Below, one piece after another: positions 2,296 through 52,065 of a stretch of DNA of 64,000 nt. The translations under genes and the position numbers were made by a program. Source of the DNA: Asterias rubens (taxonomy: Eukaryota); NCBI RefSeq assembly GCF_902459465.1, contig NC_047064.1, positions 640,762 through 704,761 on the forward strand, read 5' to 3'. Under the pieces are notes generated by a model. It did no database searches. It worked only from the letters and a program-made list of their open reading frames with translations, and was not told the DNA's origin. Positions within the stretch are counted from its first letter, which is position 1. Each line of letters opens with the position of its first letter.

Positions 2296-2922
2296 CTACA
2301 ATACTGACATAAAGGCCTGCAGTTTGGAGGGGAAATGAAATGGTTTTAGTTTAGGAAAATGCCATGAAGTCTCTTCCATTTGGAACCAGGGTCAAGGGGG
2401 TTTTCTTCTTTGCTATCAAATATTTGTTTCTAAAATTTTGTGTTCTTTTGTTAACTTAAAGTTGTAATGCATTTAATTATAAAACAGTCCAATCTGTTGC
2501 TATTATACTGTAGTATCACATCCATAGACATTATAACCTCCAAATTAAGTTACTTTTTCTTTCATGTTTTTGATTTTTTTTTCCGGAACTGGCAAGATGG
2601 TAGGCCTATATGGGTCTATAATGCCATCGAAATAAATGGGGTTTGCCTTAGCCCAAAAGTAAGTGGTTTTAATTCAGAGAAAACACAAACTATTTCAAAC
2701 AAGACTTTGTCTTTGGAAAAGGTAAAACAATTAACGAATCATTACCTGCACCAAGCAGACCACCGAAGGCGAGACCCAACACTGTTCTTATGGCCACACA
2801 TTCACATCGACCAGTGCCAAAGAATATGCGGTAAATCCACGGACAGATACATTCAAGATACCCCTTTACAGCTGGATAGAATTAAACAAAAATCATGATA
2901 AAAAATATCTACAAAAATTAAT

Positions 2923-3010
2923 AGTTGCGATAACGTAACCCTCCTCCCGACGGCCGCGTAACCCTCCTCCCGACGGCCGCCGTCGGGAGGAGGGTTACGT
3001 TATCGCAACT
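2923..3010. mobile_element. MITE-B minimal foldback: TIR AGTTGCGATAACGTAACCCTCCTCCCGACGGC and its complement, with one extra half-repeat and no interior
   Basis: Direct inverted repeat seen in the sequence. The same TIR bounds a 159-bp element at 8449-8607. Confidence 0.5.
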
Positions 3011-3041
3011 AATCTACAAAATGCTCTCCTATACTTTTGTC

Positions 3042-3939: not shown

Positions 3940-4700
3940 TGTTTTCTTCAGCAGGTTGATCGTCTGCTAGTCGTCGGTTAGTAAGTAGGCCTCCTGCTGT
4001 GCACAGTGTCTCGTCGATCGTGTAGTAGAGAGATGTTCAGAGTGTTGTTGTCGGGCATGTGTGTGTGTGTGACGACGTACGTCGTACGTTAGTTTTTAAA
4101 AAATGCGTGCGTGCGTGTGTGTGTGCGCGGTATTGTTGTACGCGTTACTGGTCAGCGCTTTGCGATAATAGTTTTTTATGCAGGCTGTTTGCGGGCACCG
4201 GGTGGGCGTTCAACTTCACGCGTTGCGCAACGACCAATAGACCGATCCATTGCTAGACTTGTGGACAAGTCGTTAAATCGGCCCCACGCGCTGAGATAGT
4301 GCTCCCCCGACAACACTGCTCTCGCGCGAACTCACTGCTCTCGCGCGAACTGATGGCTCCCCGATTTCGACTGAGTCGAAATCGGGGAGCCATCAGTTCG
4401 CGCGAGAGCAGTGAGTTCGCGCGAGAGCAGTGTTGTCGGGGGAGCACTATCTCAGCGCGTGGGGCCGATTTAACGACTTGTCCACAAGTCTAATCCATTG
4501 CATGCATTGCAACGAAATAAAGCCCGACATGCGTGCGCGTATGCTTGGCGCGCGCGGCAGAGTTGTGCAGAAAGGCATTGTAGCTCTCACGTGCTCCTTT
4601 TGCTCATAGTCTCGTGAACGCAGTCTCGTGAACAAAGCGCCACTGCCTTCACACACGAAAACACCGCGACCGGGGCATTGACATCCCCAATGGCGCTACT
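3940..4700. promoter_or_regulatory. CpG-rich, GT/GC simple-repeat-rich block between the minus-strand small gene and the plus-strand PIP5K1; candidate promoter or CpG island
   Basis: High CpG density (cgtcg, gcgcgcg, acgtacgtcg) against an AT-rich background. It lies directly upstream of the candidate exon 1 at 3902. Confidence 0.3.
4253..4493. repeat. perfect 241-bp palindrome (120-bp arms, centre 4373)
   Basis: ORFs 4253..4447(-) and 4299..4493(+) give identical 64-aa translations, so the sequence equals its own reverse complement. Confidence 0.9.
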
Positions 4701-5399
4701 AAAAAATTTTATGAGAGAACGTTCATGTGATTCGGGTAAATTTAATAACGAAATCATGATTTGATATTCAAAGTTAATAGGAAAGTTTACTTAGTGTGGG
4801 CCACGCCTAAACGAACTACTATAATTGGATACATATGATATAAAAACATATACATATCCATATAAATTGGATACATATGATATAAAGTGTTTTTCAATGG
4901 CAGAAGAGATCCCCCACCCCACCCAGGTGCTGATGGAGGTGCCTCCTCCACCATCTGGCCTGTGCAAGGTGTCTCGCAAGAAGAAGTGACTTTTATCTGG
5001 ACTCTCTTGAAGACGTGACATGCATATGTGGGACAGAGCCACAAACTATAAACACCTATTTGGAGCGAGACTGCAAAATCGAGGACCTTGCACCCAGAGA
5101 ACAGTTTAAATTGCAATTGGAACTGTGTAAGAGTTCTGGCTGAAACATATCATCTAAGTGTTTGGTGGATACGATAAGAAGAAGAATGAAGTCAAAGTTT
5201 ATGTAAGTGGGTGAGAAATTCACCAGTACTGCAGTGCAGAGAATATCTTTCATTTTCTACTTTGTTGTGTATATCTATTTACTTGATCTTGAAAGGTCTG
5301 AAATTTTTATTGTTTGTCCCCCTTTCTAAGCCATCGCTTTTGGAGTCCCAGCAGAGAGGCTTTTTCCTAAACCTGAACTTCGTTTCCGTCTGCGGCTTT
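4366..5399 (+). repeat. segment E1 copy 1 (1034 bp, non-coding), identical to 6314-7347
   Basis: Four ORF pairs offset by exactly 1948 nt have identical translations. The segment begins with the right arm of the palindrome. Confidence 0.85.
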
Positions 5400-5400
5400 T

Positions 5401-6317
5401 TCAGATAAAGGATCATCCATGAAGTATAAAAGTCGAGCATCAACTATGGATGGAAGTGTAAGTGCTTTAAATTCTAATCGAGTTGGAAAATTTTTAGGCA
5501 TTTGAGGTTCAGATTTACTCAAGAGATTGGGTTGCTCGAGGAATATGCCAGTGATTTTTTTCACATAGCTCAAGAAATGACCGAGTATACAGTGCTAACA
5601 CATGTTGCAATTCTAGAGCAGTGTCATACCAACTAGACCACCGAGGTTGCCCGGCAGCTAGAGGCAGTTCGAATCCTATGTTTTGGCAGCGGGTACCGCA
5701 ACGATATAATAGATATAATAGATGTTGAATTTGCATCGGGGATAAAGAATATTAATTTTGGTTTTTTACCCATACACCGATGTGTGTTAGCACTGTATAC
5801 TCAGTACTTTCCCGAGTCCTGTGAAAAAATATCACAGGCATGTTACTCGGGTAACTTTTGTTTTCCCTCGCCCATCTTGAGGTATATTTTCTTATATTTG
5901 GTTTTGTACTGTTTGGCAAATAAAATAATAATAACATCCTAATCAGATAACAGTTGGTATCACATTGACATCCTGGTATTGCACGCATGTCGTACCTTAG
6001 TGTCGGATCTTCTTTGCATTGTGATTGGTCAATACGCAATGGGGCTAAGCTTAATGGATCGGTCTATTGTCTGAAACAAAAATCATGTTATTGGCCTGCT
6101 GGTCTGTCACAGGTTGTAGTTTGGGAACTGGCCTGGTGAACACTGACCAATCTTGTTTCTTTATCTTTTCTTCTATTCATTGTTCTATTGTAAGGGTGGC
6201 TGGTAATAGTATAAAACATTGTGAGAAACAGCTCCCAGTGAAGAAACTAAGTTTTTGAGAAAGAAGTTATTTTCAACGAATTTGAAATTCGAAAGGATCT
6301 GAAAGCACACAACTTCG
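5401..6317 (+). mobile_element. segment E2 copy 1 (917 bp); its 3' ~240 bp are homologous to the MITE-A interior
   Basis: Identical to 11385-12301 (ORFs 5515..5736 = 11499..11720, 5752..6039 = 11736..12023, 6067..6258 = 12051..12242). Confidence 0.8.
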
Positions 6318-7347
6318 ACTGAGTCGAAATCGGGGAGCCATCAGTTCGCGCGAGAGCAGTGAGTTCGCGCGAGAGCAGTGTTGTCGGGGGAGCACTATCT
6401 CAGCGCGTGGGGCCGATTTAACGACTTGTCCACAAGTCTAATCCATTGCATGCATTGCAACGAAATAAAGCCCGACATGCGTGCGCGTATGCTTGGCGCG
6501 CGCGGCAGAGTTGTGCAGAAAGGCATTGTAGCTCTCACGTGCTCCTTTTGCTCATAGTCTCGTGAACGCAGTCTCGTGAACAAAGCGCCACTGCCTTCAC
6601 ACACGAAAACACCGCGACCGGGGCATTGACATCCCCAATGGCGCTACTAAAAAATTTTATGAGAGAACGTTCATGTGATTCGGGTAAATTTAATAACGAA
6701 ATCATGATTTGATATTCAAAGTTAATAGGAAAGTTTACTTAGTGTGGGCCACGCCTAAACGAACTACTATAATTGGATACATATGATATAAAAACATATA
6801 CATATCCATATAAATTGGATACATATGATATAAAGTGTTTTTCAATGGCAGAAGAGATCCCCCACCCCACCCAGGTGCTGATGGAGGTGCCTCCTCCACC
6901 ATCTGGCCTGTGCAAGGTGTCTCGCAAGAAGAAGTGACTTTTATCTGGACTCTCTTGAAGACGTGACATGCATATGTGGGACAGAGCCACAAACTATAAA
7001 CACCTATTTGGAGCGAGACTGCAAAATCGAGGACCTTGCACCCAGAGAACAGTTTAAATTGCAATTGGAACTGTGTAAGAGTTCTGGCTGAAACATATCA
7101 TCTAAGTGTTTGGTGGATACGATAAGAAGAAGAATGAAGTCAAAGTTTATGTAAGTGGGTGAGAAATTCACCAGTACTGCAGTGCAGAGAATATCTTTCA
7201 TTTTCTACTTTGTTGTGTATATCTATTTACTTGATCTTGAAAGGTCTGAAATTTTTATTGTTTGTCCCCCTTTCTAAGCCATCGCTTTTGGAGTCCCAGC
7301 AGAGAGGCTTTTTCCTAAACCTGAACTTCGTTTCCGTCTGCGGCTTT
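6314..7347 (+). repeat. segment E1 copy 2
   Basis: See copy 1. It diverges from copy 1 after 7347 (ggctttGGGCTCC versus ggcttttTCAGAT). Confidence 0.85.
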
Positions 7348-8001
7348 GGGCTCCGTTTGATGTTAGAAACATCATATTTTTACCTCCATGGAAACACGGG
7401 GTTGAAAAATGTGCTCCAATCCGGGGGTCAAACTCAGCGTAAGTGGAAAATCACTGAACATTGACTTGAGTCAGCAAATACAGTTATTTACATCGTTGAG
7501 GGCGCTGAAAGAACACTGCTTTGGCCGTCTTTGTTATTAGACTGGTCCCCTGTCTTTATCATACGAGCTTCAAAGTAATGACGTCAGATGTTCGGGCAAG
7601 AAAGAGGCCGGTACTAAACTGGTACTCGATAAACCATTCAATAATGAATTGGAATATACAGCACACATGGAAACCAGCCAACATTTACAGGTTCAGTTGT
7701 TTCCGGTAATTGACAAGTAGAGAACTGAGAAATATCGGGATTAAAATACAACATTTTAGCAGAAAAGATGTGAAAATAATGAAAGTCGGCGACCTGAAGG
7801 AATCTTTATTGCTGCGAATTCCATGAGAGTGAACTGAATGGTCAGACGGAAATGTTATGAAGCTTAATAGTTCAACACACACGTGAGGCGACGGGCGGAG
7901 GCCGTATTTTGTACACAAAAAAAGACTGTGTGTGTGTGCTGCGGATGTGAATGTAACAATTTTTTTGAAATTGCTGTGTTCTTTTCTAAACGGGTGACAA
8001 A

Positions 8002-8080
8002 ATGGCAGACGCCGACACTCCAGCAGCGACTAGATTAGGGCAGGAAAGGGAAAGAGAACGAACCTTATCTGGAAATAGTA
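8002..8080 (+). CDS. PIP5K1: possible first coding exon of PIP5K1 (MADADTPAATRLGQERERERTLSGNS), donor gtaagt at 8081
   Basis: An ATG is followed by an open frame and a strong donor. Its phase (1) does not join the 12505 exon (phase 0), so an intervening exon is either missing or this call is wrong. Confidence 0.25.
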
Positions 8081-8448
8081 GTAAGTACTTGAAAACAATT
8101 AACAACAATGTCAATGTCATGTGTGAAGAAAGTCAGTCGGACTCTGGAAGACCGGAGTGGTGCTAAAAAGAAAATGTTTGCAAAGAGTATTGTTTGTAAC
8201 AACTTTTATTAGCACCAACCCAGGTCAAAGGTCAACGTTTACTGGGTCAAGGTTTTCATGATGGAATTTTGTGTATACTTTTTATGGATAACTTTCTGTA
8301 TAGCGCCACCACTTTTTCCCCTGAAATACTATTTCATATGAAATGAAAAAGCGGTGGCGGCATGCGTAAACTTTTCCCTTTTCAATTAGTATCAAGAATT
8401 AGACCACTTCGAGATAATTATACTAAATAGTAATAAAATTATTCTGGT

Positions 8449-8607
8449 AGTTGCGATAATGAAACCCCCCCTCCTAGAATTTGTGTCAGTGGTAAAAATT
8501 GAGCAAATCTGTTGATTGATTAATTAGACCATTTCGCCCTTTACATTCGTATTTGGCTCATAACCTACAGGCTCTGCTGTCGGGAGGAGGGTTTCGTTAT
8601 CGCAACT
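8449..8607. mobile_element. MITE-B copy (159 bp) with TIRs AGTTGCGATAAtGaAACCCcCCTCC / GTCGGGAGGAGGGTTTCGTTATCGCAACT
   Basis: The terminal inverted repeats match those at 2923-3010. Confidence 0.5.
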
Positions 8608-11384
8608 ATGCGCTGTGAAGGTGCGATTATTATAAGTGTGTACATCAATTCAAGCTGCATTCAAAATATTCATTCACAAATGGTGATGTCAATGAAATAG
8701 CATTTTATTTTTGTATAGTTTTTCAACTGTTTTATATTGTTCAACTTGAACTCAGTAATTTGTCTCTCATTCAATGTTTTGTACAGTCTATAGATTAGTT
8801 CCCACCTGAGGTGCTGTTCACACTTTAAAGTTGAATGTTTTTGAATGCACAAAGCAATTTGTTTTCTTCGCATAAATACTGCATGCGGCACAGACTTAAA
8901 CTCCTTGCATCATTCTTCAGTGAACCGCAGCATTAGACTGCTTTATGCGGCTCATTCAAGCCAAAACCCAAGTTGCTTGTAAAATTACGTCCATTACTGT
9001 CGAATAACTGCAACCAACTCCTCACAGGGAAGTGGTGTGGTGTGGCAAGTGGAAAACATTAGTGGTGAGCTCCCCTCATGAAAGTGGTCATTTGGATTTT
9101 ATCTAGCCTAGTCTTGAACGAGTCTATTGAAGGAGCTTCTCTTATACATTCTGGTAGGCGGTTCCATTCAACGAGTGTTCTTGGAACAAAAGAGAATTTG
9201 TAACAGTCTTTAATGGTTGAAGGGTGGGTGAACGCAATTTATGAGGATTTCCTAGTGATAATTTGGTTTTCCTGTGGTTTGAGTTGATACTGGTCCGTGT
9301 CGATAGCAATTTTATGGTGCACAGATTAATATTTAATGGATATTATCTGCACATATTATGGGGGAAAAAAAAAACCACCTTCCCACATGTGCACTAGGTC
9401 TCCTAAAAGACTGAGAACGAGTTTCAAAACTAGGGCAAAAGGCAAAATTTTGGATAAAGTACCAATACCCTTTAAAAGGTTTCAACCAAAACATTTGAAA
9501 ATTCTAGACCAATTTTTGTATGAGTATTATTTATTATGAGGTCTTCCTATAGTTTGTTCACAACACAAGACAACTTGATTGTAATTTTGTTACTTTCTGA
9601 TGTTTTTATGTGATAAATCATGGTTTTTGCGATTTAAGGTTTTGAACACAGTGTGTTTTGCATTGTTGAGTTTGACGCTTACCACCCCAACAATTCAAAA
9701 TCCAGCAGCATGTTTTGTTTGGGCGTGTTGCGCAAGCGCACCTGTTGAATGAGGTGCATTCTGGGATAGCTATGGATCCAATTTGATCCCTTGTTATCCG
9801 AAAATGCACCTTATTTCACGCCTAATGCGCACCTGAGTATTGCGAAAAACTTATTGTTACAGTGAGGAAGTATCCCAATAATTCGCTCATGGGTGTACTG
9901 TTTAGTGTTAGGGTGTTTTAATGGACCTGTCCTGTACTACACCCACTGCATTTTATTACACATGGTGACACCCCCTCTTGTTGATCATGTGGCAGTCCAA
10001 AGTCATTATTTGTGCTGATCTAAGTAATAGGAGATTCTATTTACAATCGCGTCTGTAATCTCAAAGTTATCTGTACAGTGGTGAGAAGGGCCTGCTAGGA
10101 CAAGAATGTGGTATCTTTAAATAGGGCATGATATCAATATTCTGGCCGTTCAAACAACTCAAATTTGAAGGTCCCCATGGTCCATTTTGTTGGCAAAAGT
10201 TGGTTTTGAGGTTCTTTAGTTATGGTAATTTTGAAATGGCTCTTAACGTTTGAGGACAAGAAAATGGAAAAAAGATGCCTTGTAGACTTTTGTAAAGTAC
10301 CAGGGGCTTTTCCCATTAGTCTCTTTTTTTCTCTTTTTTTCTTGAATGACCCCACAAGTAAACAAATACCACACAGACAAGATACACACACATACTGTAG
10401 CATCTTATTTTTTTCACACAGTCTGTTTTTATCTTCATGTAATATGTGATAAAGTGGCAGTAGGTACATTGTTTTGTTTTGATATTTCTTGTTATTAATT
10501 AGTTATGTCAAGATGAGTATAAATGTTTACAAGTGTAACTGTTGTATGTGTATGCGATTTTGTTATTACAATGTACGTGCTGTTTTGTGCCCAGTCACTT
10601 TCCAACACTACACTGATTGTACGTGAGCACAATGTAATCATTTGTGAATCTGACCTTATTTGAGAAACTATGTTGGCATTTTGAAGGTCAATAGAAATTC
10701 CATGGGCACTCATGCAAGACTGACCAGGTAGATACAGTTCACTGTCCATCATGGGATGAATTCTTATTTTGGTACTGTCTGTCTAGGAAAATGGAAAGTT
10801 GGTGTTTAAAGCAAGTTTACTGGCAATACATGTAGTCTGGAGTTTGTCCTGAACTGTTGGTGACTAGCCAGGAGGACAAGTTGTGTAGCTTCCACTGATT
10901 TCACTAGTCCCGGCCCCCAGCCCAAACGTACAATACAACAGGGACAGATGTCGTCCAGCAACTTTGTTTTAGCAAAATGTTTAGACTGTACAAGTTTTGT
11001 GCACACTGAATATTTATAATTGAGTGGCAAATGGTGGTTTTGGGGTAGCACTGGATACATTTTGGATAGCATTGTTCTCTGCTATATGAGGAAAATCGTT
11101 TTAGTTCGCTGTACAATTAAAGTCTTTAACACGTATAAATTTCCAAAGTATCGGATCAAATATCTAATTTTAGCATACTGCTACTTTTTGTAGTTGACGG
11201 ATTTGAAGGTTGGAATACTGGGTGTGACTAAGTAATGTACACCAAGAATGTGACATCAACTGTTTGTTTTGTTAAATTTGTTTGACTTAATTTGCACATC
11301 AGAAAGGAAAATGGCATTAATTGCCTTTCAATGTCACCTAATCTAACAGGTTTTTGTTTTGTTTTGATGTTTTCCTTTTCCTTC

Positions 11385-12424
11385 TCAGATAAAGGATCAT
11401 CCATGAAGTATAAAAGTCGAGCATCAACTATGGATGGAAGTGTAAGTGCTTTAAATTCTAATCGAGTTGGAAAATTTTTAGGCATTTGAGGTTCAGATTT
11501 ACTCAAGAGATTGGGTTGCTCGAGGAATATGCCAGTGATTTTTTTCACATAGCTCAAGAAATGACCGAGTATACAGTGCTAACACATGTTGCAATTCTAG
11601 AGCAGTGTCATACCAACTAGACCACCGAGGTTGCCCGGCAGCTAGAGGCAGTTCGAATCCTATGTTTTGGCAGCGGGTACCGCAACGATATAATAGATAT
11701 AATAGATGTTGAATTTGCATCGGGGATAAAGAATATTAATTTTGGTTTTTTACCCATACACCGATGTGTGTTAGCACTGTATACTCAGTACTTTCCCGAG
11801 TCCTGTGAAAAAATATCACAGGCATGTTACTCGGGTAACTTTTGTTTTCCCTCGCCCATCTTGAGGTATATTTTCTTATATTTGGTTTTGTACTGTTTGG
11901 CAAATAAAATAATAATAACATCCTAATCAGATAACAGTTGGTATCACATTGACATCCTGGTATTGCACGCATGTCGTACCTTAGTGTCGGATCTTCTTTG
12001 CATTGTGATTGGTCAATACGCAATGGGGCTAAGCTTAATGGATCGGTCTATTGTCTGAAACAAAAATCATGTTATTGGCCTGCTGGTCTGTCACAGGTTG
12101 TAGTTTGGGAACTGGCCTGGTGAACACTGACCAATCTTGTTTCTTTATCTTTTCTTCTATTCATTGTTCTATTGTAAGGGTGGCTGGTAATAGTATAAAA
12201 CATTGTGAGAAACAGCTCCCAGTGAAGAAACTAAGTTTTTGAGAAAGAAGTTATTTTCAACGAATTTGAAATTCGAAAGGATCTGAAAGCACACAACTTC
12301 GTGTGACACAGGTGTTTTTTCTTTCATTATTATCTCAGGTTTGTTGTTTTATGCATATTGAGATGGATACACTAAGTGAGAAGACTGGTCTTTGACAGTT
12401 ACCAATAGTGTCCAGTGTCTTTTA
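11385..12424 (+). mobile_element. segment E2 copy 2 (11385-12301) continuous with a MITE-A 3' end and TIR (12302-12424): a long MITE-A-related element
   Basis: After CACAACTTCG it continues tgtgacacaggtgttttt...accaatagtgtccagtgtc, exactly as the MITE-A interior does (cacgacttcgtgtgtgacaagggtg). Confidence 0.7.
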
Positions 12425-12504
12425 TTTGCTGGGTAGCAGTGCATTATATTTGAAAAGCTCAGTCTCAATCTTTGTCTATCTGGGTTTTTTTTTTCTCCCT
12501 TTAG

Positions 12505-13029: not shown

Positions 13030-13155
13030 CTGTGTCATCTTGATCAGGCCTGTGTCATCTTGATCAGGCCTGTGGCATCTTGATCAGGCCTGTGGCATCT
13101 TGATCAGGCCTGTGTCATCTTGATCAGGCCTGTGTCATCTTGATCAGGCCTGTGG
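13030..13155. repeat. 21-bp minisatellite x6 (CTGTG[T/G]CATCTTGATCAGGCC)
   Basis: Direct tandem repeat. Confidence 0.9.
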
Positions 13156-17267: not shown

Positions 17268-17570
17268 TTAAAGCCATTGGACCCTTTCGGTTCAGAAACA
17301 AAAACAAAAAGTTCACAGATTTACAAATAACTTACAGGGTTTACAGTTAAGGCAAGCAATGGTGAAAGACTTCTCTTGAAATATTATTCCATGAAATGCT
17401 TTACTTTTTGAAAAAACAGCAAAACAATATAAATTCTCGTTAACAAGAATTACGGATTTATTTTAAACACATGTCATGACACGGCGAAACGCGCGGAAAC
17501 AAGGGTGGGTTTTTCCGTTGTTTTCTCCCGACTCCGATGACCGATTGAGCCTAAATTTTCACAATTGGAA
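17268..17570 (+). mobile_element. MITE-D 5' part (truncated; no 3' TIR)
   Basis: TTAAAGCCATTGGACCCTTTCGGT... Its interior is identical in organisation to 50925-51293. Confidence 0.6.
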
Positions 17571-18990: not shown

Positions 18991-19776
18991 TCAGTGATTT
19001 ATTTACATTGGGAGTGGAACACTTATTCTCATAATGTCATAATTCCTTGAATTACATGATTGTAAGCTACGCATCAAGCTTGCATAAAGATAAACTTGCT
19101 ATCGCACAATCGCGAGTGGAATATTGAAAAACATAGCGCCTCTGCGTCCCATTACTGATGAAATTTTGGCCGCAGACGAACTTTGTTTTCAGCATTCAAC
19201 TCCAGCCTGTGTGCTAACTAAAAAGTATTACCTCGTGGGATTTTTCAGACAACTCATTTGCATGGCGGGAATCTGAGGCTGCAGTATGCATAACCTACCT
19301 ACATGTACAGCCAGTTTGTTTAGATTGAAATTCTCTGCATAAACAATCAAGACAATGAAGACATCATTGTTTACTTTCTACCCCCAGTGGTCAACTGTCT
19401 CCATCATTTCTCCAGAGTGTCTAGAAATCGCATCTCCAATTCACTTTCTATGTTTTAAACGATTCTTAACATTTTCTTTATTTTTTCAAAAACTAATGTT
19501 TTCAAGTATTGAAGTCTCACTTTAAAAGTCAAATCTACTTTCAGAGATCATATTCAACACCTTCAAATAATATTAAAGATGCTGAGAATGTTTTTTTTTA
19601 ATGATTTAATTCCAATATAATTAAATTCCAAGACTGACTGTTCTTTGCCCTGAGTGTTTGTTCAAATATTGTCTGTCTGCCAGTGTCTATCGGGACATCC
19701 AGCACAAGGAAATGCTTGAGTGAGGTTTGGTTTGGAGGGAGATGGAATATGGCACAAATTTAAAATCAAGCTTTTT

Positions 19777-20120
19777 AAAGGCAGTGGACACTATTGGTAA
19801 TTACTTTAAATAATTATTAGCATAAAACCTTACTTGGTAACGAGTAATGGGGAGAGGTTGATGGTATAAAACATTGTGAGGAAAGGCTCACTCTGAAGTG
19901 GAGTAGTTTGAGAGAAAGAAGTAATTTTCCACGAATTTGATTTTGAGACCTCAAGTTTAGAATTTGAAGGGTGGAATCAAGCATCTGAAAGCACACGACT
20001 TCGTGTGTGACAAGGGTGTTTTTCTTTCATTATTATCTCGCAACTTCGATGACTGATTGAGCTAAAATTTTCACAGGCTTGTTATCTTTGACAATTACCA
20101 ATAGTGTCCACTGTCTTTAA
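19777..20120 (+). mobile_element. MITE-A full copy (TTAAAG GCAGTGGACACTATTGGTAAT ... ATTACCAATAGTGTCCACTGTC TTTAA)
   Basis: 22-bp terminal inverted repeats and TTAAAG flanks, with a shared interior. Confidence 0.7.
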
Positions 20121-20313
20121 CAATTCTTGGCAGTAGGGCACATGCTCAGACCTATGGAGCAATATTAGCAAATGCACTCTCATAACTGCAATTGTTTTAT
20201 GCTCTGCATGTTTGGCTGTGTTTTTCACATTTTCAATAGTACACAAAAATATCCCTTCAAGAGACACATTTATACACTACATGTACATGTAGGTGATGAG
20301 AAGGAACGTATGG

Positions 20314-20721
20314 TTAAAGACACTGGACACTATTAGTGATTGTCAAAGACCAGTCTTCCCACTTGGTGTTTCTCAACATGTGCATAAAATAACAAACCTG
20401 TGAAAATTTGAACTCAATTGGTCGTCGAAGTAGCGAGATAATAATGAATGAAAAAAACACCCTTGTCACACAAATTTTGTGTGTGTGTGCTTTCAGATGC
20501 TTGATTTCGAGACCTCAAATTCTAAACCTGAGGTCTCAAAATCAAATTCGTGGAAAATTAATTCTTTCTAAAGAACTACATCACTTCAGAGGGAGCCATT
20601 TCTCGCAATTTTTTATACCATCAACCTCTCCCTATAACTTGTTACAAAATAAGGTATTACTATTTTGAGTAATTACCAATAACTATTTTTAGTAATTACC
20701 AATATTGTCCACTGCCTTTAA
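20314..20721 (-). mobile_element. MITE-A full copy, inverted relative to 19777-20120 and 193 bp away
   Basis: TTAAAG ACACTGGACACTATTAGTGATTGTC ... ACCAATATTGTCCACTGCC TTTAA. Confidence 0.7.
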
Positions 20722-21786: not shown

Positions 21787-22002
21787 GTTAAAACTTAAGA
21801 CTTTTCTATTCTATAAAAATATCTTATATTATTGAATACTGTGGGGGGGGGGGGGGGGAGCTCATGCACTTCAGAGCATTTCAAACTATATCAGGACAAA
21901 CCCAAGAGAGTTTGAGGAATGTGGTTTACTGTGCCAGGCTTGTATGCTTTGTTTTTGAAATGGCACCAAGTATGGGGCACCCTTTGAGGAAATTGTGAAT
22001 TC

Positions 22003-22757
22003 CACTGATGTTATTGATTTCACTGATGTTATTGATTTCACTGATGTTATTGATTTCACTGATGTTATTGATTTCACTGATGTTATTGATTTTACTGATG
22101 ACATTGATTTCACTGATGACATTGATTTCACTGATGTTATTGATTTCACTGATGTTATTGATTTCACTGAAGTTATTGATTTCACTGATGTTATTGATTT
22201 CACTGATGACATTGATTTCACTGATGTTATTGATTTCAGTGATGTTATTGATTTCACTGATGTTATTGATTTCACTGATGTTATTGATTTCACTGATGTT
22301 ATTGATTTCACTGATGTTATTGATTTCACTGATGTTATTGATTTCAGTGATGTTATTGATTTCACTGATGTTATTGATTTCACTGATGTTATTGATTTCA
22401 CTGATGTTATTGATTTCACTGATGTTATTGATTTCACTGATGTTATTGATTTCACTGATGTTATTGATTTCACTGATGTTATTGATTTCACTGATGTTAT
22501 TGATTTCACTGATGACATTGATTTCACTGATGTTATTGATTTCACTGATGTTATTGATTTCACTGATGACATTGATTTCACTGATGTTATTGATTTCACT
22601 GATGTTATTGATTTCACTGATGTTATTGATTTCACTGATGTTATTGATTTCACTGATGTTATTGATTTCACTGATGTTATTGATTTCACTGATGTTATTG
22701 ATTTCACTGATGACATTGATTTCACTGATGACATTGATTTGATTTCACTTATTTCAC
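22003..22757. repeat. 18-bp minisatellite (CACTGATGTTATTGATTT, variant ..GACATTGATTT) ~41 copies inside PIP5K1 intron 21787-22807
   Basis: Explains the 244-282-aa ORFs in three frames (21886..22734-, 21995..22810+, 22008..22742+). Confidence 0.95.
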
Positions 22758-22807
22758 TGATTTTGATGATTTTATCTGATTTTAACTTCCATTCAATCCT
22801 GTTGCAG

Positions 22808-29749: not shown

Positions 29750-29902
29750 ATATCTCTGGTAGATCAGGCTTTACGAGAGTTGTCTAATCCTGGAGCTAGT
29801 GGAAGTGTCTTCTATCTTACTGATGATGATGAGTTTATCATTAAGACTGTACAACATAAGGAAGCAGACTTTCTTCAGAAGCTGCTACCCGGTTATTACA
29901 TG
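29750..29902 (+). CDS. PIP5K1: PIP5K1 kinase-core exon: [51 protein letters not shown]
   Basis: Matches the PIPK catalytic core motif [11 protein letters not shown]..[26 protein letters not shown]. The acceptor is tctttgtag and the donor is gtaagt. Confidence 0.95.
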
Positions 29903-29960
29903 GTAAGTCAAACATCTAAAGGTTGTGGGTTCAAATCTCACCCGAGTCATATATCCCTAT

Positions 29961-30086
29961 GAGTTGTCTAATCCTGGAGCTAGTGCGAGTGTCTTCTATC
30001 TTACTGATGATGATGAGTTTATCATTAAGACTGTACAACATAAGGAAGCAGACTTTCTTCAGAAGCTGCTACCCGGTTATTACATG
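29961..30086 (+). pseudogene. duplicate (copy 2) of the PIP5K1 kinase-core exon segment LSNPGAS(A)SVFY...GYYM with an intact gtaagt donor; 2-nt change GGAAGT to GCGAGT
   Basis: Member of a 184-bp x3 tandem array. It lacks the 27 nt 5' of the real exon. An AG at 29962-29963 (tatgag) would give an in-frame 123-nt cassette. Confidence 0.6.
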
Positions 30087-30144
30087 GTAAGTCAAACATC
30101 TTAAGGTTGTGGGTTCAAATCTCACCCGAGTCATATATCCCTAT

Positions 30145-30271
30145 GAGTTGTCTAATCCTGGAGCTAGTGCGAGTGTCTTCTATCTTACTGATGATGATGA
30201 GTTTATCATTAAGACTTGTACAACATAAGGAAGCAGACTCCCTTCAGAAGCTGCTACCTGGTTATTACATG
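30145..30271 (+). pseudogene. degenerate copy 3 of the same exon segment (1-nt insertion frameshift; further substitutions)
   Basis: 184-bp array; aagacttgtacaac has one extra T compared with the real exon. Confidence 0.6.
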
Positions 30272-30662
30272 GTAAGTCAAACATCTTTGCATCTTGAAAC
30301 GGAAGTTCATGAGATTTGTTCTTCAATTTAAAGGTAGATTGGCAAAGGTCGTGGGTTCAAATCCCACACGAATCATTTGCCTGTGATTTAATTTGTTTTT
30401 CTTCACAGAACTCTGAAAAGTACTGAAGTATACAGTGCACATCAGTGTGAGGGTAGAACCTTTCACTAAATATGAAGGGTTTTTTTCCCCTTTTTAAATG
30501 CGCCGTTTTAAAGTCACCTGGAAATATTTTTTTTTTTCTTTCAAACATAAGAGTATGTGCTTACGAATAATAAAACAATTTTTTTAGTAATTGTTTGTCA
30601 CGATTTATATGTTTAAAAAATATATAAAGTTGTTAGGGGGGCTGACTCCGCCTACCCCTTTT

Positions 30663-30924
30663 GTGACGTCAATCGAGGCAGACTTTGCCTGCAATGCGTA
30701 TAGTAAACACACGTGCAAAGTACATGTACGTCCAAGTCGTGAGTTGGTACATTTCAAAAAGTGTTTTTCTGCATTCAGCAGCAATACACCTGGTCGGCAT
30801 TGCCGGAAAAAAAACAATTTTTTTTTTTTTTAAATGTACAAACTCACGACTTGGTCCGTACATGTACTTTGCAATTGTGTTTACTCTACGCATTACAGGC
30901 AAAGTCTGCCTCGATTGACGTCAC
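30663..30924. mobile_element. inverted-repeat element: ~110-bp arms (~88% identical) starting GTGACGTCAATCGAGGCAGAC, ~40-bp spacer
   Basis: Symmetric ORF translations on both strands (30605..30817- versus 30761..30967+), and the arms are visible in the sequence. Confidence 0.5.
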
Positions 30925-31939
30925 GAACAGCGCCCTCTCGGGTCGGGGTCTACTCTTAAATTTGTAAATAACATAAGAACTGGTTTTTTAAAACCTTAGT
31001 TAACTGTTTATTCACATTCCACTCATCAAAACACATATATTAGTGACAAAAGCTTTATTTTGAAAAAGTACCACTTCCAGGTGACTTTAAATTCATCACT
31101 TTGCAGGGTTACAAAATTTCAGTTATTTTTCTTATCAACATTTAGAAAAGCTTAACAAAATTAACTCAGATTTTTTGTTTTACACAGAATTTTGAAACAC
31201 CTACAACAGAACAAGGGTAATTTTAGTTTCAAGCCCCCCCCCCCCCCCAAAAAAAATATTAAAAAAATAAATAAATAAATAAATAAATAAAAGCGGACTG
31301 AAAGAGTCAAAGGAAGGATCTGAGCTCCTCCTTTGGGATTATTATCTTACGGGTCCTCCATGACTGGAGAGGGATTTATTAATATTTCTTAAGACTTAAG
31401 AGTCATTCATTATTCACATAAATACCCATTGGCTCTTTGTCTAGTACATGTTGTTCATGACGCCAGTACATCCCGACTTGCAACAAATTACATGTAATGC
31501 ATGTATTTTTTTCGACAGGAAAATAAATAAATAAATTCTGGAACATCTGGGACGTTTTTCCTCCCAAATTGCTTGAGCAAACAAAGTTGTAAAATTTGAT
31601 CCCACGCAAAGAGAGTTTGGATGAATAATCATGCTATGTCAATGTGTAGTACCACCATATTGGGTGTGACTCATTTACACTAAAACCAATATTTCATTTG
31701 CAGATATTGTTTTTGTCTTTTGGTCCATTTTGTCATTTTCCAAATAGAATAGGAAATAAAATTAGCTGTTGCAAAATGCTTACCGACCAAAAGGACCAAT
31801 AGTGTAAAATAAAAAAATAGTTAATTGACCTCACTTTGACCAGACTCTGCTAGGGTCAAAATGGGACAATAACTGTTTTTGCAATAAATATTAATTTAAC
31901 CCCATATTTTACATGAAGTTTCTTTCTTTACCGCTCTAG

Positions 31940-33433: not shown

Positions 33434-33765
33434 GGGGGGGGGGTTGAACCAACGACCTCCGGATTAACGTGCCGGCGCTCTACCAACTGAGCTATCCCCT
33501 GGTGATCCCCTGGATGCCGCTTCCCAGGTTATATCGGAATTTGGGTGTGATCCCTGGCTACACGGCAGTTGACGGTTACATGGCTTCTGACTGGCACCTA
33601 TTGACGAAATAGGGACACCGCTAATATAGGGCTAGATAGCTCAGTTGGTAGAGCGCCGGGTTGTTGGTTCGAATCCCACTCTAGTCAATTCTTTGTTCAA
33701 CCCCAAAAGTCATTTAAAAAATTACCCAGTCAGTTTCCCTTGTGGTTTATATTGATAATTATTAT
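33434..33765 (+). mobile_element. composite tRNA-derived SINE locus: inverted partial tRNA-like head, X region, forward tRNA-like head (anticodon arm deleted), AATTCTTTGTTCAACCCCAAAAG tail
   Basis: GGGCTAGATAGCTCAGTTGGTAGAGCGCCGG..GTTGGTTCGAATCCCACTCTAGTCA. It is the reverse complement of locus 51749-52065. Confidence 0.55.
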
Positions 33766-34129: not shown

Positions 34130-34503
34130 TTAAAGGCAGTGGACACTGTTGGTAATTACTCAAAATAATTGTTAGCATACAAAATTACTTGGTAATGAGC
34201 AATGGAGAGCTGTTGGTAGTACAAAACATTGTGATAAATGGCTCCCTCTGATGTAACATAGTTTTTGAAGAAGGAGGTTATTTCTGACTCAAATAATAAA
34301 AGACTTCAGCTGAAGCCTTTCAATATGCTTCTGACTACACAAAGAAATGCTTCATGGTTGTGTTTTCTTTCATTATTTTTTTGCTAATTCGATGACCAAC
34401 TGAGCCCAAATTTTCACAGGTTTGTTATTTTATGCTCATGTTGGGATACGCCAAGTGAGAATACTGGTCTTTGACAATTACCAAAGGTGTCCAGTGTCTT
34501 TAT
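34130..34503 (+). mobile_element. MITE-A copy filling most of the 496-bp PIP5K1 intron 34100-34595
   Basis: TTAAAG GCAGTGGACACTGTTGGTAAT ... CCAAAGGTGTCCAGTGTC TTTATTA. Confidence 0.7.
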
Positions 34504-34595
34504 TATTTGTTCTTTTGATTCATCAGTGCATGCCTCTAAATAACCCATGGCACACACCGTATTATTTTGTGTTTTATGTTTTTTGTTATTTTCAG

Positions 34596-40773: not shown

Positions 40774-41232
40774 GTGAGAATGCTTAGCAAGAAAGTCTGC
40801 TTTAATTAGCAAGAAAGTCTGCTTAACGAAATAATATGGGAACACAGTTACTCTGCCGGTTGAAAAAGCTATAAAGACTTGGCCATGAAATATGTCACTA
40901 TGTTTGTGCTACATAAACTCAATCTATTTAGAAAACTATACACAAAAAATGAAGGCAAAATTTCCGGATTTAGTTTTCACTTCAAATTTATTTCAAATCT
41001 TAGTTGAAACAAGTTCAGTGTAGTTCAACTTTGATGAACTGCGATGCCTTGACATATTATTTGTTGCAATTTTGATTCAATGTGTAGCACTCTAATTCAC
41101 ACTTTCAAATGGCGCACATCCCATTCATGCTCGTTTGCAAATTAACTCATCAATAATAACCATAAATAACAGTAAGTTAACTAACCCTGAACCACTTGAT
41201 GCTTATTAGGCCAAACTTGTGTGGAAGTTAAT

Positions 41233-41605
41233 TAAAGGCACTGTACACATTTGGTAATTGTCAAAGACCAGTGTTCTTACTTGGTGTATACCAGCATAAG
41301 CATAAAATAACAAACCTGTGAAAATTTGAGCTCAATTGGTCATCGAAGTTGCGAGAAAATGATGAAAGAAAAAACACCTTTGTTGGACTTAATTGTGTGC
41401 TTTCAGAAAGAATTCAAACTTCTAGCTAAAAGTCTTATAATATATTAGTGAGAAATTACCTCTTTCTCAAAAACTATATCACTTCAGAGGGAGTCGTTTC
41501 CCACAATGTTTGATACTATCAACAGCTCTCCAATGCTCGTTACCAAGTCAGTTTTTAAATTAATATTTGTTTTGAGTAACTACCAAACGTGTACCTTACC
41601 TTTAA
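41233..41605 (-). mobile_element. MITE-A subfamily-2 copy (TIR GGCACTGTACACATTTGGTAAT / ..CCAAACGTGTACCTTACC)
   Basis: Its interior is ~90% identical to 47028-47404 and it has TTAAAG flanks. Confidence 0.65.
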
Positions 41606-41981
41606 ATTGAAATAACTGATATATAGTTCATAGCTAATCACACAGTGTATGTATGTTCTGTCTGTGTTTATGGCATGATGTCAATATGTCTAGTTACTAA
41701 GTTGATTAGTAGAATCCAAACTTCATTTACTCAGAACTGAAACATCCTCATTCACAGTACGTGCTCAAAAACATAGATTAAATAATCACAGTTTGTTACT
41801 ACCAAATGAAATTTTTAGTGTTTTCTAACCATACCAAACTTTCTAAAATAATCAAACAGTGCAGTCCATTTTTCAAGGAGCTCCAAATTTCAAAGATGAT
41901 ATTTCTGAAATTCTCTGAAAAGGGATGTTTCATCTCTGAGCTGTCAACGTCATTGTTGCTGTTATACTACGCACTCTAGAC

Positions 41982-43168
41982 CACTCAGCTACCCTCTCTT
42001 ATCCCAATAGCTACCAACTCTCAATACCGCAGCTACCCTTTCTCACCCCCACAACTACTTAATATCAACCCCTTAGCTATTTAGTCTAAACCACAAATTT
42101 ACCCGCTCTCAACCCATATAGCTATCCACTTTCAACCCTATAGGTACCCACTCTCAACCCTATAGGTACCCACTCTTAACCCTATAGGTACCCACTCTCA
42201 ACCCCATAGCTACCCACTCTCAACCCCATAGCTACCCACTCTCAACCCCATAGCTACCCACTCTCAACCCCCTAGCTACCCACTCTCGACCCCATAGCTA
42301 CCCACTCTCGACCCCTTAGCTACCCACTCTCAACCCCCTAGCTACCCACTCTCAACCCCATAGCTACCCACTCTCAACCCCCTAGCTACCCACTCTCAAC
42401 CCCCTAGCTACCCACTCTCGACCCCATAGCTACCCACTCTCAGTCCCATAGCTATCCACTCTCAACCCCATTGGTACCCACTCTCAACCCTATAGGTACC
42501 CACTCTCAACCCCCTAGCTACCCACTCTCAACCCCCTAGCTACCCACTCTCAACCCTATAGGTACCCACTCTCGACCCCATAGCCACCCACTCTCAACCC
42601 CATAGCTACCCACTCTCAACCCCCTAGCTACCCACTCTCGACCCCCTAGCTACCCACTCTCAGTCCCATAGCTACCCACTCTCAAACCCCTAGCTACCCA
42701 CTCTCAACCCTCTAGCTACCCGATCTCAACCCTATAGGTACCCAATCTCAACCTCTTAGCTACCCACTCTCAACCCCATAGCCACCCACTCTCAACCCCC
42801 TAGCTACCCACTCTCAACCCCCTAGCTACCTACTCTCAACCCTCTAGCTACCCACTCTCAACCCCATAGCCACCCACTCTCAACCCCCTAGCTACCCACT
42901 CTCAACCCCCTAGCTACCCACTCTCAACCCCCTGGCTACCCACTCTCAACCCCATACCTACCCACTCTCAACCCCATACCTACCCACTCTCAACCCCCTA
43001 GCTACCCACTATTGACCCCCTAGCTACCCACTCTCAACCCCCTAGCTACCCACTCTCAACCCCAGAGCTGCCCACTCTCAACCCCCTAGCTACACACTCT
43101 CAACCCCATAGCTACCCACTCTCAACCCCATAGCTACCCACTCTCAACCCTATAGCTACCCACTCCAA
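41982..43168. repeat. ~1.2-kb satellite of a 22-bp unit (TAGCTACCCACTCTCAACCCCA and variants) ~54 copies in the last PIP5K1 intron
   Basis: Direct tandem repeat. Confidence 0.95.
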
Positions 43169-44794: not shown

Positions 44795-45165
44795 TTAAAG
44801 CCATTGGACCCTTTCGGTAAACAGTATTGTCCAAGGCCCACACTTCGTGTGTCACAACATCTATATCAAATAACAAACCTGTGAAAATTTGGGCTTAATC
44901 GGAGTCGGGAGAAAATAACGGGAAAACCCACCCTTGTATCCGCGCGTTACGCCGTGTCATGACATGTGTTTAAAACAAATCCGTAATTCTCGTTAACGAG
45001 AATTGGTATTGTTTTACTGTTTTCTCAAAAAGTAAATCATTTCATGGAATAATATTTCAAGAGAAGTATTTCACCACTACCTTCTGTAAACCCTGTAAGT
45101 TATTTGTAAATCTGTGAACTTTTTTTTTTTTTTTTTTTTTTACCGAAAGGGTCCAATGGCTTTAA
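44795..45165 (-). mobile_element. MITE-D full copy with internal poly-T (45121-45141)
   Basis: TIRs AAAGCCATTGGACCCTTTCGGTA / TACCGAAAGGGTCCAATGGCTTT with TTAAAG flanks. Confidence 0.7.
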
Positions 45166-47027: not shown

Positions 47028-47404
47028 GCTTAAAGACACTTGACACTATTGGTAATTGCCAAAGACCAGTCTTCTCACTTGGTGTATCTCAACATATGCA
47101 TAAAATAACAAACCTTTGAAAATTTGGGCTCAATTGATCATCGAAGTTGCGAGAAAATGATGAAAGAAAAAACACCCTTGTTGGACGAATTTGTGTGCTT
47201 TCAGAGAGGAATAAAAGACTTCTAGCTAGAATTCTTTTTATTTTTTAGTGAGAAATTACCTCTTTCTCAAAAACTACGTTACTTCAGAGGGAGTCGTTTC
47301 CCACAATGTTTTATACTATCAACAGCTCTCCAATGCTCGTTACCAAGTCAGTTTTTAAATTAATATTTGTGTTGTCTACAAAATGTGTACCTTCCCTATA
47401 AATA
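47028..47404 (-). mobile_element. MITE-A subfamily-2 copy
   Basis: TTAAAG ACACTTGACACTATTGG ... CAAAATGTGTACCTTCC CTATAAA. Confidence 0.65.
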
Positions 47405-50924: not shown

Positions 50925-51293
50925 TTAAAGCCATTGGACCCTTTCGGTACAGAAAAAAAAAAGGTAACAGATTTACAAATAATTTACAGGGTTTACAGAA
51001 GGTAATGGTGAAAGACTTCTCTTGAAATATTAGTCCATGAAATGCTTTACTTTTTGAGAAAACGGTAAAACAATATAAATTCTCGTTAGCGAGAATTACG
51101 GATTTGTTATAAACACATGTCATGACACGGCGAAACGCGCGAAAACAGGAGTGGGTTTTCCCGTTATTTTCTCCCGACTCCGATGTCCGATTGAGCCTAA
51201 ATTTCTACAGGATTGTTATTTTATATATAAGTTGTGATACACGAAGTGTGGGACTTGGACAATATTGCTACCGAAAGCGTATAATGGCTTTAA
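50925..51293 (+). mobile_element. MITE-D full copy
   Basis: TIRs as for 44795-45165. Its interior (cggcgaaacgcgcg..ctcccgactccgatgtccgattgagcctaaattt) resembles the MITE-A interior. Confidence 0.7.
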
Positions 51294-51748: not shown

Positions 51749-52065
51749 TGGTTGAACAAAGAATTGACTAGAGTTGGATTCGAACCAACGACCTCCGGAT
51801 TAACGTGCCGGCGCTCTACCAACTGAGCTATCTAGCCCTATATTGGCGGTGTCCCTATTTTGTCAATATCTTTGTTCGGGGGTGCCAGTCAGAAGCCATA
51901 CAACCGTTAACTGCCTTGTAGCCAGGGATCACACCCAAAGTACGATACAACCTGGGAAGCGGCAGCCAGGGGATCACCATAAGTCAATTCTTTGTTCAAC
52001 CCCAAAAATCATTTCAAAATTTACCCAGTCAGTTTCCTTGTGGTTTATATTGATATTCAAAGTAT
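51749..52065 (-). mobile_element. composite tRNA-derived SINE locus with a full cloverleaf-capable tRNA-like head (GTT-anticodon-like loop ACGTTAA)
   Basis: rc = GGGCTAGATAGCTCAGTTGGTAGAGCGCCGGCACGTTAATCCGGAGGTCGTTGGTTCGAATCCAACTCTAGTCAATTC. The X region and tail are shared with 33434-33765. Confidence 0.55.

Follow-up and report, generated by a model that had tools for sequence, protein, structure and literature searches.

The foldback elements described to date provide the closest parallels to the locus analyzed here. In the Drosophila element Foldback (FB), the target-site duplication (TSD) is 9 bp long. In the P superfamily, which includes foldback-like elements such as Galileo, the MITE (miniature inverted-repeat transposable element) BuT5 and its P element have TSDs of 8-9 bp (PMC3698922). 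Muta1 of Aedes aegypti, a 'type 2 foldback' Mutator-like element (MULE), has TSDs of 8-9 bp and terminal inverted repeats (TIRs) of 145 bp, and its palindromic terminal motif and subterminal tandem repeats are needed for the binding and cleavage by the transposase (PMC5499845). Here we describe a perfect palindrome of 239 bp from Asterias rubens, located at positions 4254-4492 of a 64,000-nucleotide stretch of contig NC_047064.1 (positions 640,762 to 704,761, assembly GCF_902459465.1; hereafter the window, to which all coordinates refer unless a metagenome contig is named). In all likelihood, this palindrome is a complete copy of a short, non-coding DNA transposon of the foldback type, that is, a MITE, at which a duplication linked to its hairpin arose later.

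The second set of parallels concerns rearrangements. Complex duplications are produced by replicative template switching in the processes known as fork stalling and template switching (FoSTeS) and microhomology-mediated break-induced replication (MMBIR). Palindromes break at the centre and are rejoined by end joining, and the centres of the palindromic AT-rich repeats (PATRRs) are polymorphic (PMC4940405). Furthermore, hairpins with loops shorter than 9 nt are attacked by Mre11, and perfect palindromes stall replication forks (PMC8053094).

The palindrome and its dispersed relatives

The repeat finder returned two perfect arms of 119 nt, and an independent scan for centres of symmetry returned a single odd centre at 4373 with the same arm length; the flanking bases, C at 4253 and A at 4493, do not pair. 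A preliminary description of this DNA had reported a perfect palindrome of 241 bp with arms of 120 bp. The perfection of the palindrome is borne out but its size is not: the limits 4253-4493 had been taken from two identical open reading frames (ORFs) of 64 aa that mirror each other within the palindrome (4253-4447 on the minus strand and 4299-4493 on the plus strand). The left arm opens with the terminus TAGACTTGTGGACAAGTC, inside which GACTTGT and ACAAGTC form a small palindromic terminal motif (GACTTGT-GG-ACAAGTC), and contains the 19-nt subrepeat CACTGCTCTCGCGCGAACT twice in tandem (Tandem Repeats Finder, TRF: period 19, 2.0 copies, 100% match), with the pair mirrored in the right arm at 4395-4432. 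This is the CpG-rich repeated arm motif that the preliminary description had correctly pointed out: the element is 58% GC with an observed to expected (o/e) CpG ratio of 1.29, compared to 37.5% and 0.50 for the window. Because the CpG-rich patch continues past the element on both sides, the element sits within a CpG-island-like region. The same description had also recognized a hairpin-forming structure, and the predicted fold of the palindrome as single-stranded DNA is indeed one unbranched hairpin of -177 kcal/mol. Shuffled sequences average -44 +/- 3.6 kcal/mol (z = -37), and none of the 200 shuffles was equally stable, so that the stability of the hairpin is far above the chance expectation. 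The native flank to the right of the element has a tandem pair of its own, two copies of AGTCTCGTGAAC at 4600-4632, which is similar in form to the CTCTCGCGCGAAC subrepeat of the element and may be a coincidence or a promoter motif.

The entire palindrome is bracketed by a direct 9-bp repeat, ATCCATTGC, that abuts the ends of the element. This 9-mer occurs four times in the window, against 0.74 occurrences expected by chance, and one of the four is a copy made by the duplication discussed below (6441-6449); the probability of a chance 9-bp match at both ends is ~4e-6 per site. Direct repeats that enclose an entire palindrome in this way are the hallmark of insertion at a staggered cut, here with a stagger of 9 bp. 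A transposase supplied in trans and cutting with this stagger would have inserted the element and duplicated the target, the duplication itself being directly seen, and the empty site before the insertion would read ...GACCGATCCATTGCATGCATTGC....

No copies of the arm beyond the three already known were detected in the 64-kb window when the arm, its 20-nt terminus and the subrepeat were used as queries (blastn with word size 7, nhmmer, fuzzy regular expressions and a hidden Markov model of the family). The 64-aa palindrome ORF had no match in an exact look-up or in a word-indexed protein search. An index-free HMMER search with this pseudo-ORF retrieved two predicted proteins (P0121 and P0122) that read straight through a related element, and a profile search retrieved six such read-through ORFs, all from ENA seawater metagenome assemblies and most from the SOLA coastal station at Banyuls (Mediterranean), where a monthly Illumina series of DNA metagenomes has been collected. 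The metagenome contigs share additional repeats with the window, at up to 97% identity (for example, positions 1-155 of contig L004 and 30937-31090 of the window, 97%); the source of these contigs is therefore either the host of the window itself or a close relative of it.

In total, the element is found at four loci, as three full copies and one fragment (Table 1). The full copies (window, L003, L004 and L005) start with TAGACTTGTGGAC and finish with GTCCACAAGTCTA or a near variant; TAGACTTGTGGACAAGTC is kept in L003, L004 and L005, and the conserved terminus is also present in L006, L007 and L008. L003 is flanked by its own perfect 9-bp TSD, GAGTTGAGT, and L004 and L005 by ACCTGTTAA. Thus, three independent insertions (window, L003 and L004/L005) have the same ends and, in each case, a 9-bp duplication. 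These duplications and the related palindromic copies at unrelated loci indicate that a foldback element, one of the options that had been raised previously, was essentially the right choice. The subrepeat pattern was matched additionally in two JGI metagenome contigs; these are bacterial contigs of 62-70% GC in which the pattern alone matched, and we attribute the matches to chance. Neither the subrepeat nor the terminus had a counterpart in the viral and prokaryotic genome collections.

Within the family, perfect symmetry is confined to the window copy; the arms of L003 differ at 12 of 100 aligned sites. Given that the arms are identical at 119 of 119 positions and the two copies of the TSD at nine of nine, the window copy appears to be young or recently homogenised. 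Both its arms carry an indel of ~19 nt, an extra subrepeat unit, that is absent from both arms of all other copies, and hence the evolution of the two arms is not fully independent. As a remote possibility, one arm could be regenerated from the other by fold-back synthesis, which would explain both the symmetry of the window copy and the mirrored indel.

With respect to classification, the full copies are 196-239 bp long, compared to a limit of ~800 bp for MITEs, encode only mirror-image pseudo-ORFs and have no Pfam match; the search for Pfam domains covered ten ORFs within the region or close to it, as well as P0121 and P0122, and was negative for all of them. The termini TAGACTTGTGGAC...GTCCACAAGTCTA are conserved among the copies, and the TSD has a fixed length of 9 bp at the ATCCATTGC, GAGTTGAGT and ACCTGTTAA insertions. 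As in foldback elements, the arms make up nearly the whole element, with a centre of 1 nt, two 19-nt subrepeats per arm and a single hairpin. The TSDs of 9 bp at three loci and the TIRs of ~100-119 nt also fall within the description of MULEs (TSDs of 8-11 bp, long TIRs). Among the characterized elements, the closest architecture is that of the Mutator-like foldback elements. The similarities to Muta1 and other type 2 foldback MULEs include the length of the TSD and the long TIRs with a palindromic terminal motif and tandem subterminal repeats; moreover, the non-autonomous derivatives of these elements are little more than two TIRs (PMC5499845). However, Muta1 has nine 12-nt subterminal repeats as opposed to two 19-nt repeats per arm, and terminates in GGGTCTACCC rather than TAGACTTGTGGAC; furthermore, the host in our case is a marine invertebrate, and no transposase partner was found. 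With FB and Galileo/BuT5, the element shares the dominance of long inverted repeats, the internal tandem repeats and the association with chromosomal rearrangements. The arms of FB and Galileo, however, are imperfect and hundreds to thousands of base pairs long, and their rearrangements mostly involve ectopic recombination between copies rather than a break at the centre of one copy.

Two other superfamilies were considered and rejected. hAT elements have 8-bp TSDs, in contrast to the nine matching bases on each side of all three insertions. Helitrons produce no TSD, insert between A and T, start with TC, end with CTRR and have a short hairpin at the 3' end, in contrast to the 9-bp duplications and the TAG...CTA ends observed here. 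Membership of the MULEs would further call for an autonomous partner that shares the TIRs and encodes a MURA-type DDE transposase. Because the autonomous partner was not found, we refrain from assigning the element to a superfamily. We regard it as a previously undescribed family of foldback MITEs, within a class that is itself ordinary.

The composite duplication at the palindrome centre

Self-BLAST of the window showed that segment A (4366-5399) is repeated at 6314-7347 (1034 bp, 100% identical, offset 1948 bp), and segment B (5398-6317) at 11382-12301 (920 bp, one mismatch). Segment X (7348-11381; 4,034 bp), which lies between A and B, is present in the second copy only. The duplicate copies match without a difference in stretches of 1034 bp and 917 bp. 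The 1948-bp tandem unit of the preliminary description therefore holds insofar as A is repeated at this offset; the unit is composite, however, and its second copy is interrupted by 4,034 bp. Contrary to the same description, it does not start at the right arm but at 4366, 7 nt to the left of the palindrome centre. The proposed connection between the palindrome and the repeated segment itself stands, given that the duplication has its breakpoint at the centre of the palindrome.

At the junction of A and B, copy 1 reads GCGGCT-TT-T-TCAGAT, with a 2-nt microhomology (TT), and the sole mismatch between the copies, T at 5400 versus C at 11384, falls exactly at this junction. The junction of B and A contains a 4-nt microhomology, TTCG, and lands at 4366-4370, 3-7 nt to the left of the centre. 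By a post-hoc estimate, the chance of a breakpoint within +/-7 nt of the centre is roughly 15/6000 (0.25%, for a span of ~6 kb). The palindrome must be older than the duplication. With zero substitutions in ~1.95 kb, the divergence of the copies is below roughly 0.15%, which implies that the duplication is very recent. We also considered the possibility that X is a transposon inserted in copy 2; X lacks TIRs, a poly-A tract and a clean target duplication, and a skip or a deletion that removed it from copy 1 is more likely. Scattered over the window are copies of an interspersed repeat of ~350-400 bp, which lie in both orientations and share 77-89% identity (Table 1); one of these copies forms the end of segment B, and hence the right breakpoint of the duplication is inside a repeat. 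Exact look-ups of ORFs spanning the B/A, A/B, X/B and element-right-flank junctions returned no record, a result that neither supports nor refutes the duplication.

The centres of the related copies differ as well. The longer centre of L004 and L005, once the A>G changes in these copies (see below) are allowed for, reconstructs a perfect palindromic core of 42 nt, CCCCGATTTCGACTCCTCATTAATGAGGAGTCGAAATCGGGG. The centre of L003 is this core minus 9 nt (TCCTCATTA), and the centre of the window copy is the core minus the central 13 nt. Thus, three independent copies have three different centres, with the arms otherwise conserved. Such differences are what processing of the hairpin tip produces, and PATRR centres show the same behavior (PMC4940405). 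More generally, PATRRs, as well as engineered perfect palindromes and Alu inverted repeats in yeast, resemble the window copy in being near-perfect and a few hundred base pairs long, in breaking at the centre and in showing small central deletions; the junction 3-7 nt from the centre and the polymorphic central deletions of the present family follow this pattern. PATRRs differ from the present element, a transposon of 58% GC, in being AT-rich, and lead to translocations as opposed to a local tandem duplication with an internal skip; moreover, the breakage here is read from the sequence only. The two junctions with 2-4 nt of microhomology, the base change at a junction and the combination of a duplication with an internal skip are all features of FoSTeS/MMBIR, with the difference that the palindrome itself was not formed in this way and that both junctions may, but need not, stem from a single event.

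The start of the duplication at the palindrome centre suggests either the breakage of a hairpin or cruciform or a switch of template. Under this scenario, the perfect palindrome, after its insertion, would have acted as a fragile or fork-stalling site via a hairpin or cruciform. A break or template switch 3-7 nt from the tip would have been joined through TTCG to a point ~6 kb downstream, and a second jump, with 2 nt of microhomology, would have skipped 4,034 bp; together, the two jumps would yield the extra 1948-bp composite segment and the half element at its end. Two routes can be envisaged, each of which would reproduce the structure. In one, cleavage of the hairpin or cruciform would open its tip a few nucleotides to one side of the centre, and the end bearing the right arm, with the few left-arm nucleotides past the tip, would be joined by microhomology. 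In the other, the nascent strand would switch template twice, forward over X at a T-run and then back onto the hairpin tip, which would be single-stranded. There is experimental precedent for either route, in the breakage of palindromes at the centre followed by end joining (PMC4940405) and in the attack of Mre11 on hairpins and the stalling of forks (PMC8053094).

Table 1. Coordinates of the element, its relatives on metagenome contigs, the duplication and the interspersed repeats (window positions unless a contig is named)
Feature	Location	Strand	Details
Left arm (terminal inverted repeat) of foldback MITE	4254..4372	+	119 nt, 100% complementary to 4374-4492
Right arm (terminal inverted repeat) of foldback MITE	4374..4492	+	
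Centre of symmetry	4373	.	single G
Two tandem 19-nt subterminal repeats CACTGCTCTCGCGCGAACT in left arm	4314..4351	+	TRF and motif search
CpG-island-like patch hosting the element	~3950..4700	.	GC 51-57%, CpG o/e 1.2-1.5 on both sides
Left copy of 9-bp TSD ATCCATTGC	4245..4253	.	identical to 4493-4501, abuts element end
Right copy of 9-bp TSD ATCCATTGC	4493..4501	.	identical to 4245-4253
L003 copy	contig L003, 463-666		204-bp near-palindrome, 79% identical to window copy over full length
L004 copy	contig L004, 682-898		217 bp, 70.5% identical to window copy
L005 copy	contig L005, 706-901		allele or orthologue of L004 locus, 89% flank identity
L008 copy	contig L008, 1-54		further partial allele of L004/L005 locus
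L006 and L007 copies	contigs L006 and L007		allelic pair; solo 54-bp right end, 98% identical to window arm
Extra 1948-bp composite segment, copy 1	4366..6313	+	A (4366-5399) joined to B (5398/5401-6317), without X
Copy 2, full-length template	6314..12301	+	A 6314-7347, X 7348-11381, B 11382-12301
Duplication junction, B end to palindrome centre	6314..6317	.	TTCG microhomology, equivalent 4366-4369 and 12298-12301
Half element	6314..6449	+	7 innermost left-arm nt, centre, right arm 6322-6440, ATCCATTGC copy 6441-6449
Interspersed ~350-400-bp repeat copies	300-665, 19775-20720, 34130-34505, 41232-41607, 47030-47403, 6199-6292, 12183-12428		

Alternative origins of the palindrome and the duplication

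Several observations weigh against the interpretation of the locus as a foldback MITE followed by a hairpin-linked duplication. Only three full copies and one fragment were found, with a single insertion in the 64-kb window, and the empty site for this insertion was not recovered. No autonomous partner was found, nor any transposase ORF in the window, and the TAG...CTA termini are unlike the G-rich ones that Mutator elements typically have. Regarding the duplication, no reads or independent contigs span its junctions, so that a chimeric read or an assembly error is an unlikely but conceivable source, and for a causal role of the hairpin there is a single coincidence of position.

These observations have to be set against the fit of the alternatives. 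The left arm had previously been viewed as a surplus inverted copy that arose when a replication fork switched template. Under such a local inverted duplication, the right arm would be native and the left arm copied from it, either by intrastrand fold-back or by template switching, which would account for the identity of the arms; furthermore, the 7 nt adjoining the centre on either side constitute a short inverted repeat that could prime fold-back, and the neighbourhood shows microhomology-mediated rearrangement. However, copying of this kind is expected to place an inverted copy of the right flank, GCAATGGAT, on the left; the whole 239 bp is bracketed by a direct repeat instead, which implies insertion. 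In addition, the same palindromic unit, with the same ends, is found at unrelated, unlinked loci with other 9-bp duplications, and hence the arm is not native to the window locus, leaving a local origin very improbable. The suggestion that the palindrome is a replication origin or the terminal hairpin of a rolling-hairpin or rolling-circle replicon (a parvovirus-like inverted terminal repeat (ITR), a Helitron end or a hairpin telomere) fares even worse. Parvoviral ITRs with their Rep-binding repeats resemble the palindrome in the arm size of ~120 nt and the GC-rich repeated motif, but an ITR of this type would be branched (T- or Y-shaped) and adjoin NS1/Rep and capsid genes, whereas the predicted fold here is a simple, unbranched hairpin. 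There are no replication or capsid ORFs nearby, the tested ORFs being devoid of Pfam matches, no second terminal copy of the arm at the other end of any unit and no matches in viral contigs or prokaryotic genomes. Moreover, precise 9-bp duplications at three loci are a signature of a transposase, and Helitrons make none. We therefore consider a replicon hairpin to be scarcely credible.

A cloning or assembly error had been raised previously for the palindrome. An artefact of sequencing or assembly, under which the organism itself would lack the palindrome or the 1948-bp segment, requires separate consideration of the two structures. It could result from a chimeric long read, from two haplotypes with a 4-kb indel stacked in tandem or from mis-traversal of the assembly graph at the palindrome. 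The duplicate copies are 100% identical except for the junction base, palindromes are known trouble spots in sequencing (PMC4940405), and independent data across the junctions are lacking. For the palindrome, an artefact is ruled out by the TSD and by the independent Illumina metagenome contigs with related full palindromes. For the duplication, it is possible, but overlap and graph assemblers require long overlaps rather than microhomologies of 4 nt and 2 nt, diverged haplotypes would not match perfectly for 1.9 kb in this taxon, whose alleles elsewhere are 5-11% apart, and the region contains no Ns and no contig ends. On balance, an artefact seems unlikely, although its probability is the most appreciable among the alternatives considered here. 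It is also conceivable, with a distinctly lower probability, that the element or some of its copies were recruited as a hairpin-RNA gene, encoding a small-RNA precursor or a structured RNA, and that the symmetry is kept by selection. The location in a CpG-island-like patch, which may be a promoter, would be compatible with such recruitment, as would the fact that 30 of the 39 changes in L004/L005 are A>G or C>T and keep G.U pairing on one RNA strand. No Rfam family was detected at the palindrome, however; the L004/L005 changes come without compensatory T>C and look like a mutational burst rather than the outcome of long-term selection, and other copies simply decay, as seen in the arms of L003.

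A side observation concerns this one-strand pattern in the L004/L005 element. Of 43 aligned A sites, 25 have changed to G relative to the window copy, as opposed to 0 of 42 aligned T sites that have changed to C (Fisher p = 4e-10). The A>G changes are found in both arms on the same strand, so that A-T pairs of the hairpin become G.T. As RNA, the plus strand is predicted to fold with -179 kcal/mol and 27 G.U pairs, and the minus strand with -107 kcal/mol. The skew is confined to the element (84 G versus 57 C), with G equal to C in the flanks, and most of the A>G changes are common to three diverged alleles (L004, L005 and L008). The lack of T>C compensation argues against long-term selection on structure. 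The pattern is reminiscent of a hairpin RNA hyper-edited by an ADAR-type enzyme, except that the changes are fixed in DNA. When the A>G sites of L004 were examined for the 5'-neighbour preference of ADARs, G showed no depletion at the 5' side (9/25), and the sequence motif therefore lends no support to classical ADAR editing. One could imagine that the hairpin was transcribed, that its RNA was hyper-edited by an ADAR-type deaminase and that the edits were written back into the germline DNA at the L004/L005/L008 locus, either when the break-prone palindrome was repaired on an RNA template or when reverse-transcribed hairpin RNA was re-integrated; we consider this chain of events somewhat less probable still than recruitment as an RNA gene. 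This hypermutation of a sibling copy is the only truly puzzling item in our analysis.

Other window features and implications

The window contains several other repeats. At 2922-3011, there is a second small, CpG-rich and nearly loop-less palindromic element, TAGTTGCGATAACG...CGTTATCGCAACTA, with the subrepeat GTAACCCTCCTCCCGACGGCCGC present twice in the left arm and the direct repeat ATCTACAAAA at 2907-2916 and 3012-3021, the left one offset by 5 nt. A solo arm of this element, ending at the same terminus, is located at 8576-8609, inside segment X. This element probably represents another foldback MITE family, likewise with TAG...CTA ends. A nested set of MITE-like inverted repeats with TTTAAAGTCACCTGGAA termini (30507-31091) is also found in L004, L006 and L007 at 83-97% identity. 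Additional MITE-like inverted-repeat elements include two of ~370 bp with TTAAAGCCATTGGACCC termini (44795-45165 and 50925-51293) and one at 17268-17558. Minisatellites are present at 21999-22784 (~790 bp, with self-matches offset by multiples of 18 bp and long spurious ORFs), at 41964-43168 (~1.2 kb, offset by multiples of ~22 bp) and at 13030-13154 (6 x 20 bp, CTGTGTCATCTTGATCAGGC), along with a direct repeat with a 184-bp offset at 29777-30287.

The only clear coding exon in the window is an open exon of 512 aa on the minus strand (59790-61328) that encodes a doublecortin-like kinase and comprises a DCX region and a linker rich in Glu and Lys, together with an N-terminal portion of the kinase domain; its best matches, at ~70% identity and in the kinase part only, come from the enteropneust hemichordates Ptychodera flava and Glandiceps talaboti. 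The window also contains a full tRNA gene (51765-51837, minus strand) and a weaker tRNA-like match (33630-33687, plus strand), which has an inverted 25-nt tRNA-like partner at 33472-33496, 138 nt upstream, and the match and its partner may be a pair of tRNA-derived repeats.

Taken together, our results lead us to read the structure as a young copy of a foldback MITE, and not as an origin of replication, a duplication by fold-back or a mistake of the assembly. Annotators should regard the 1948-bp 'tandem unit' as a structural variant that is recent or possibly spurious. Under this reading, the locus is a clean natural example of a perfect, GC-rich palindrome that coincides exactly with the breakpoint of a duplication which is very recent and joined by microhomology, and the differing central deletions in the sibling copies agree with the predictions from experiments on palindrome fragility in yeast and human cells.

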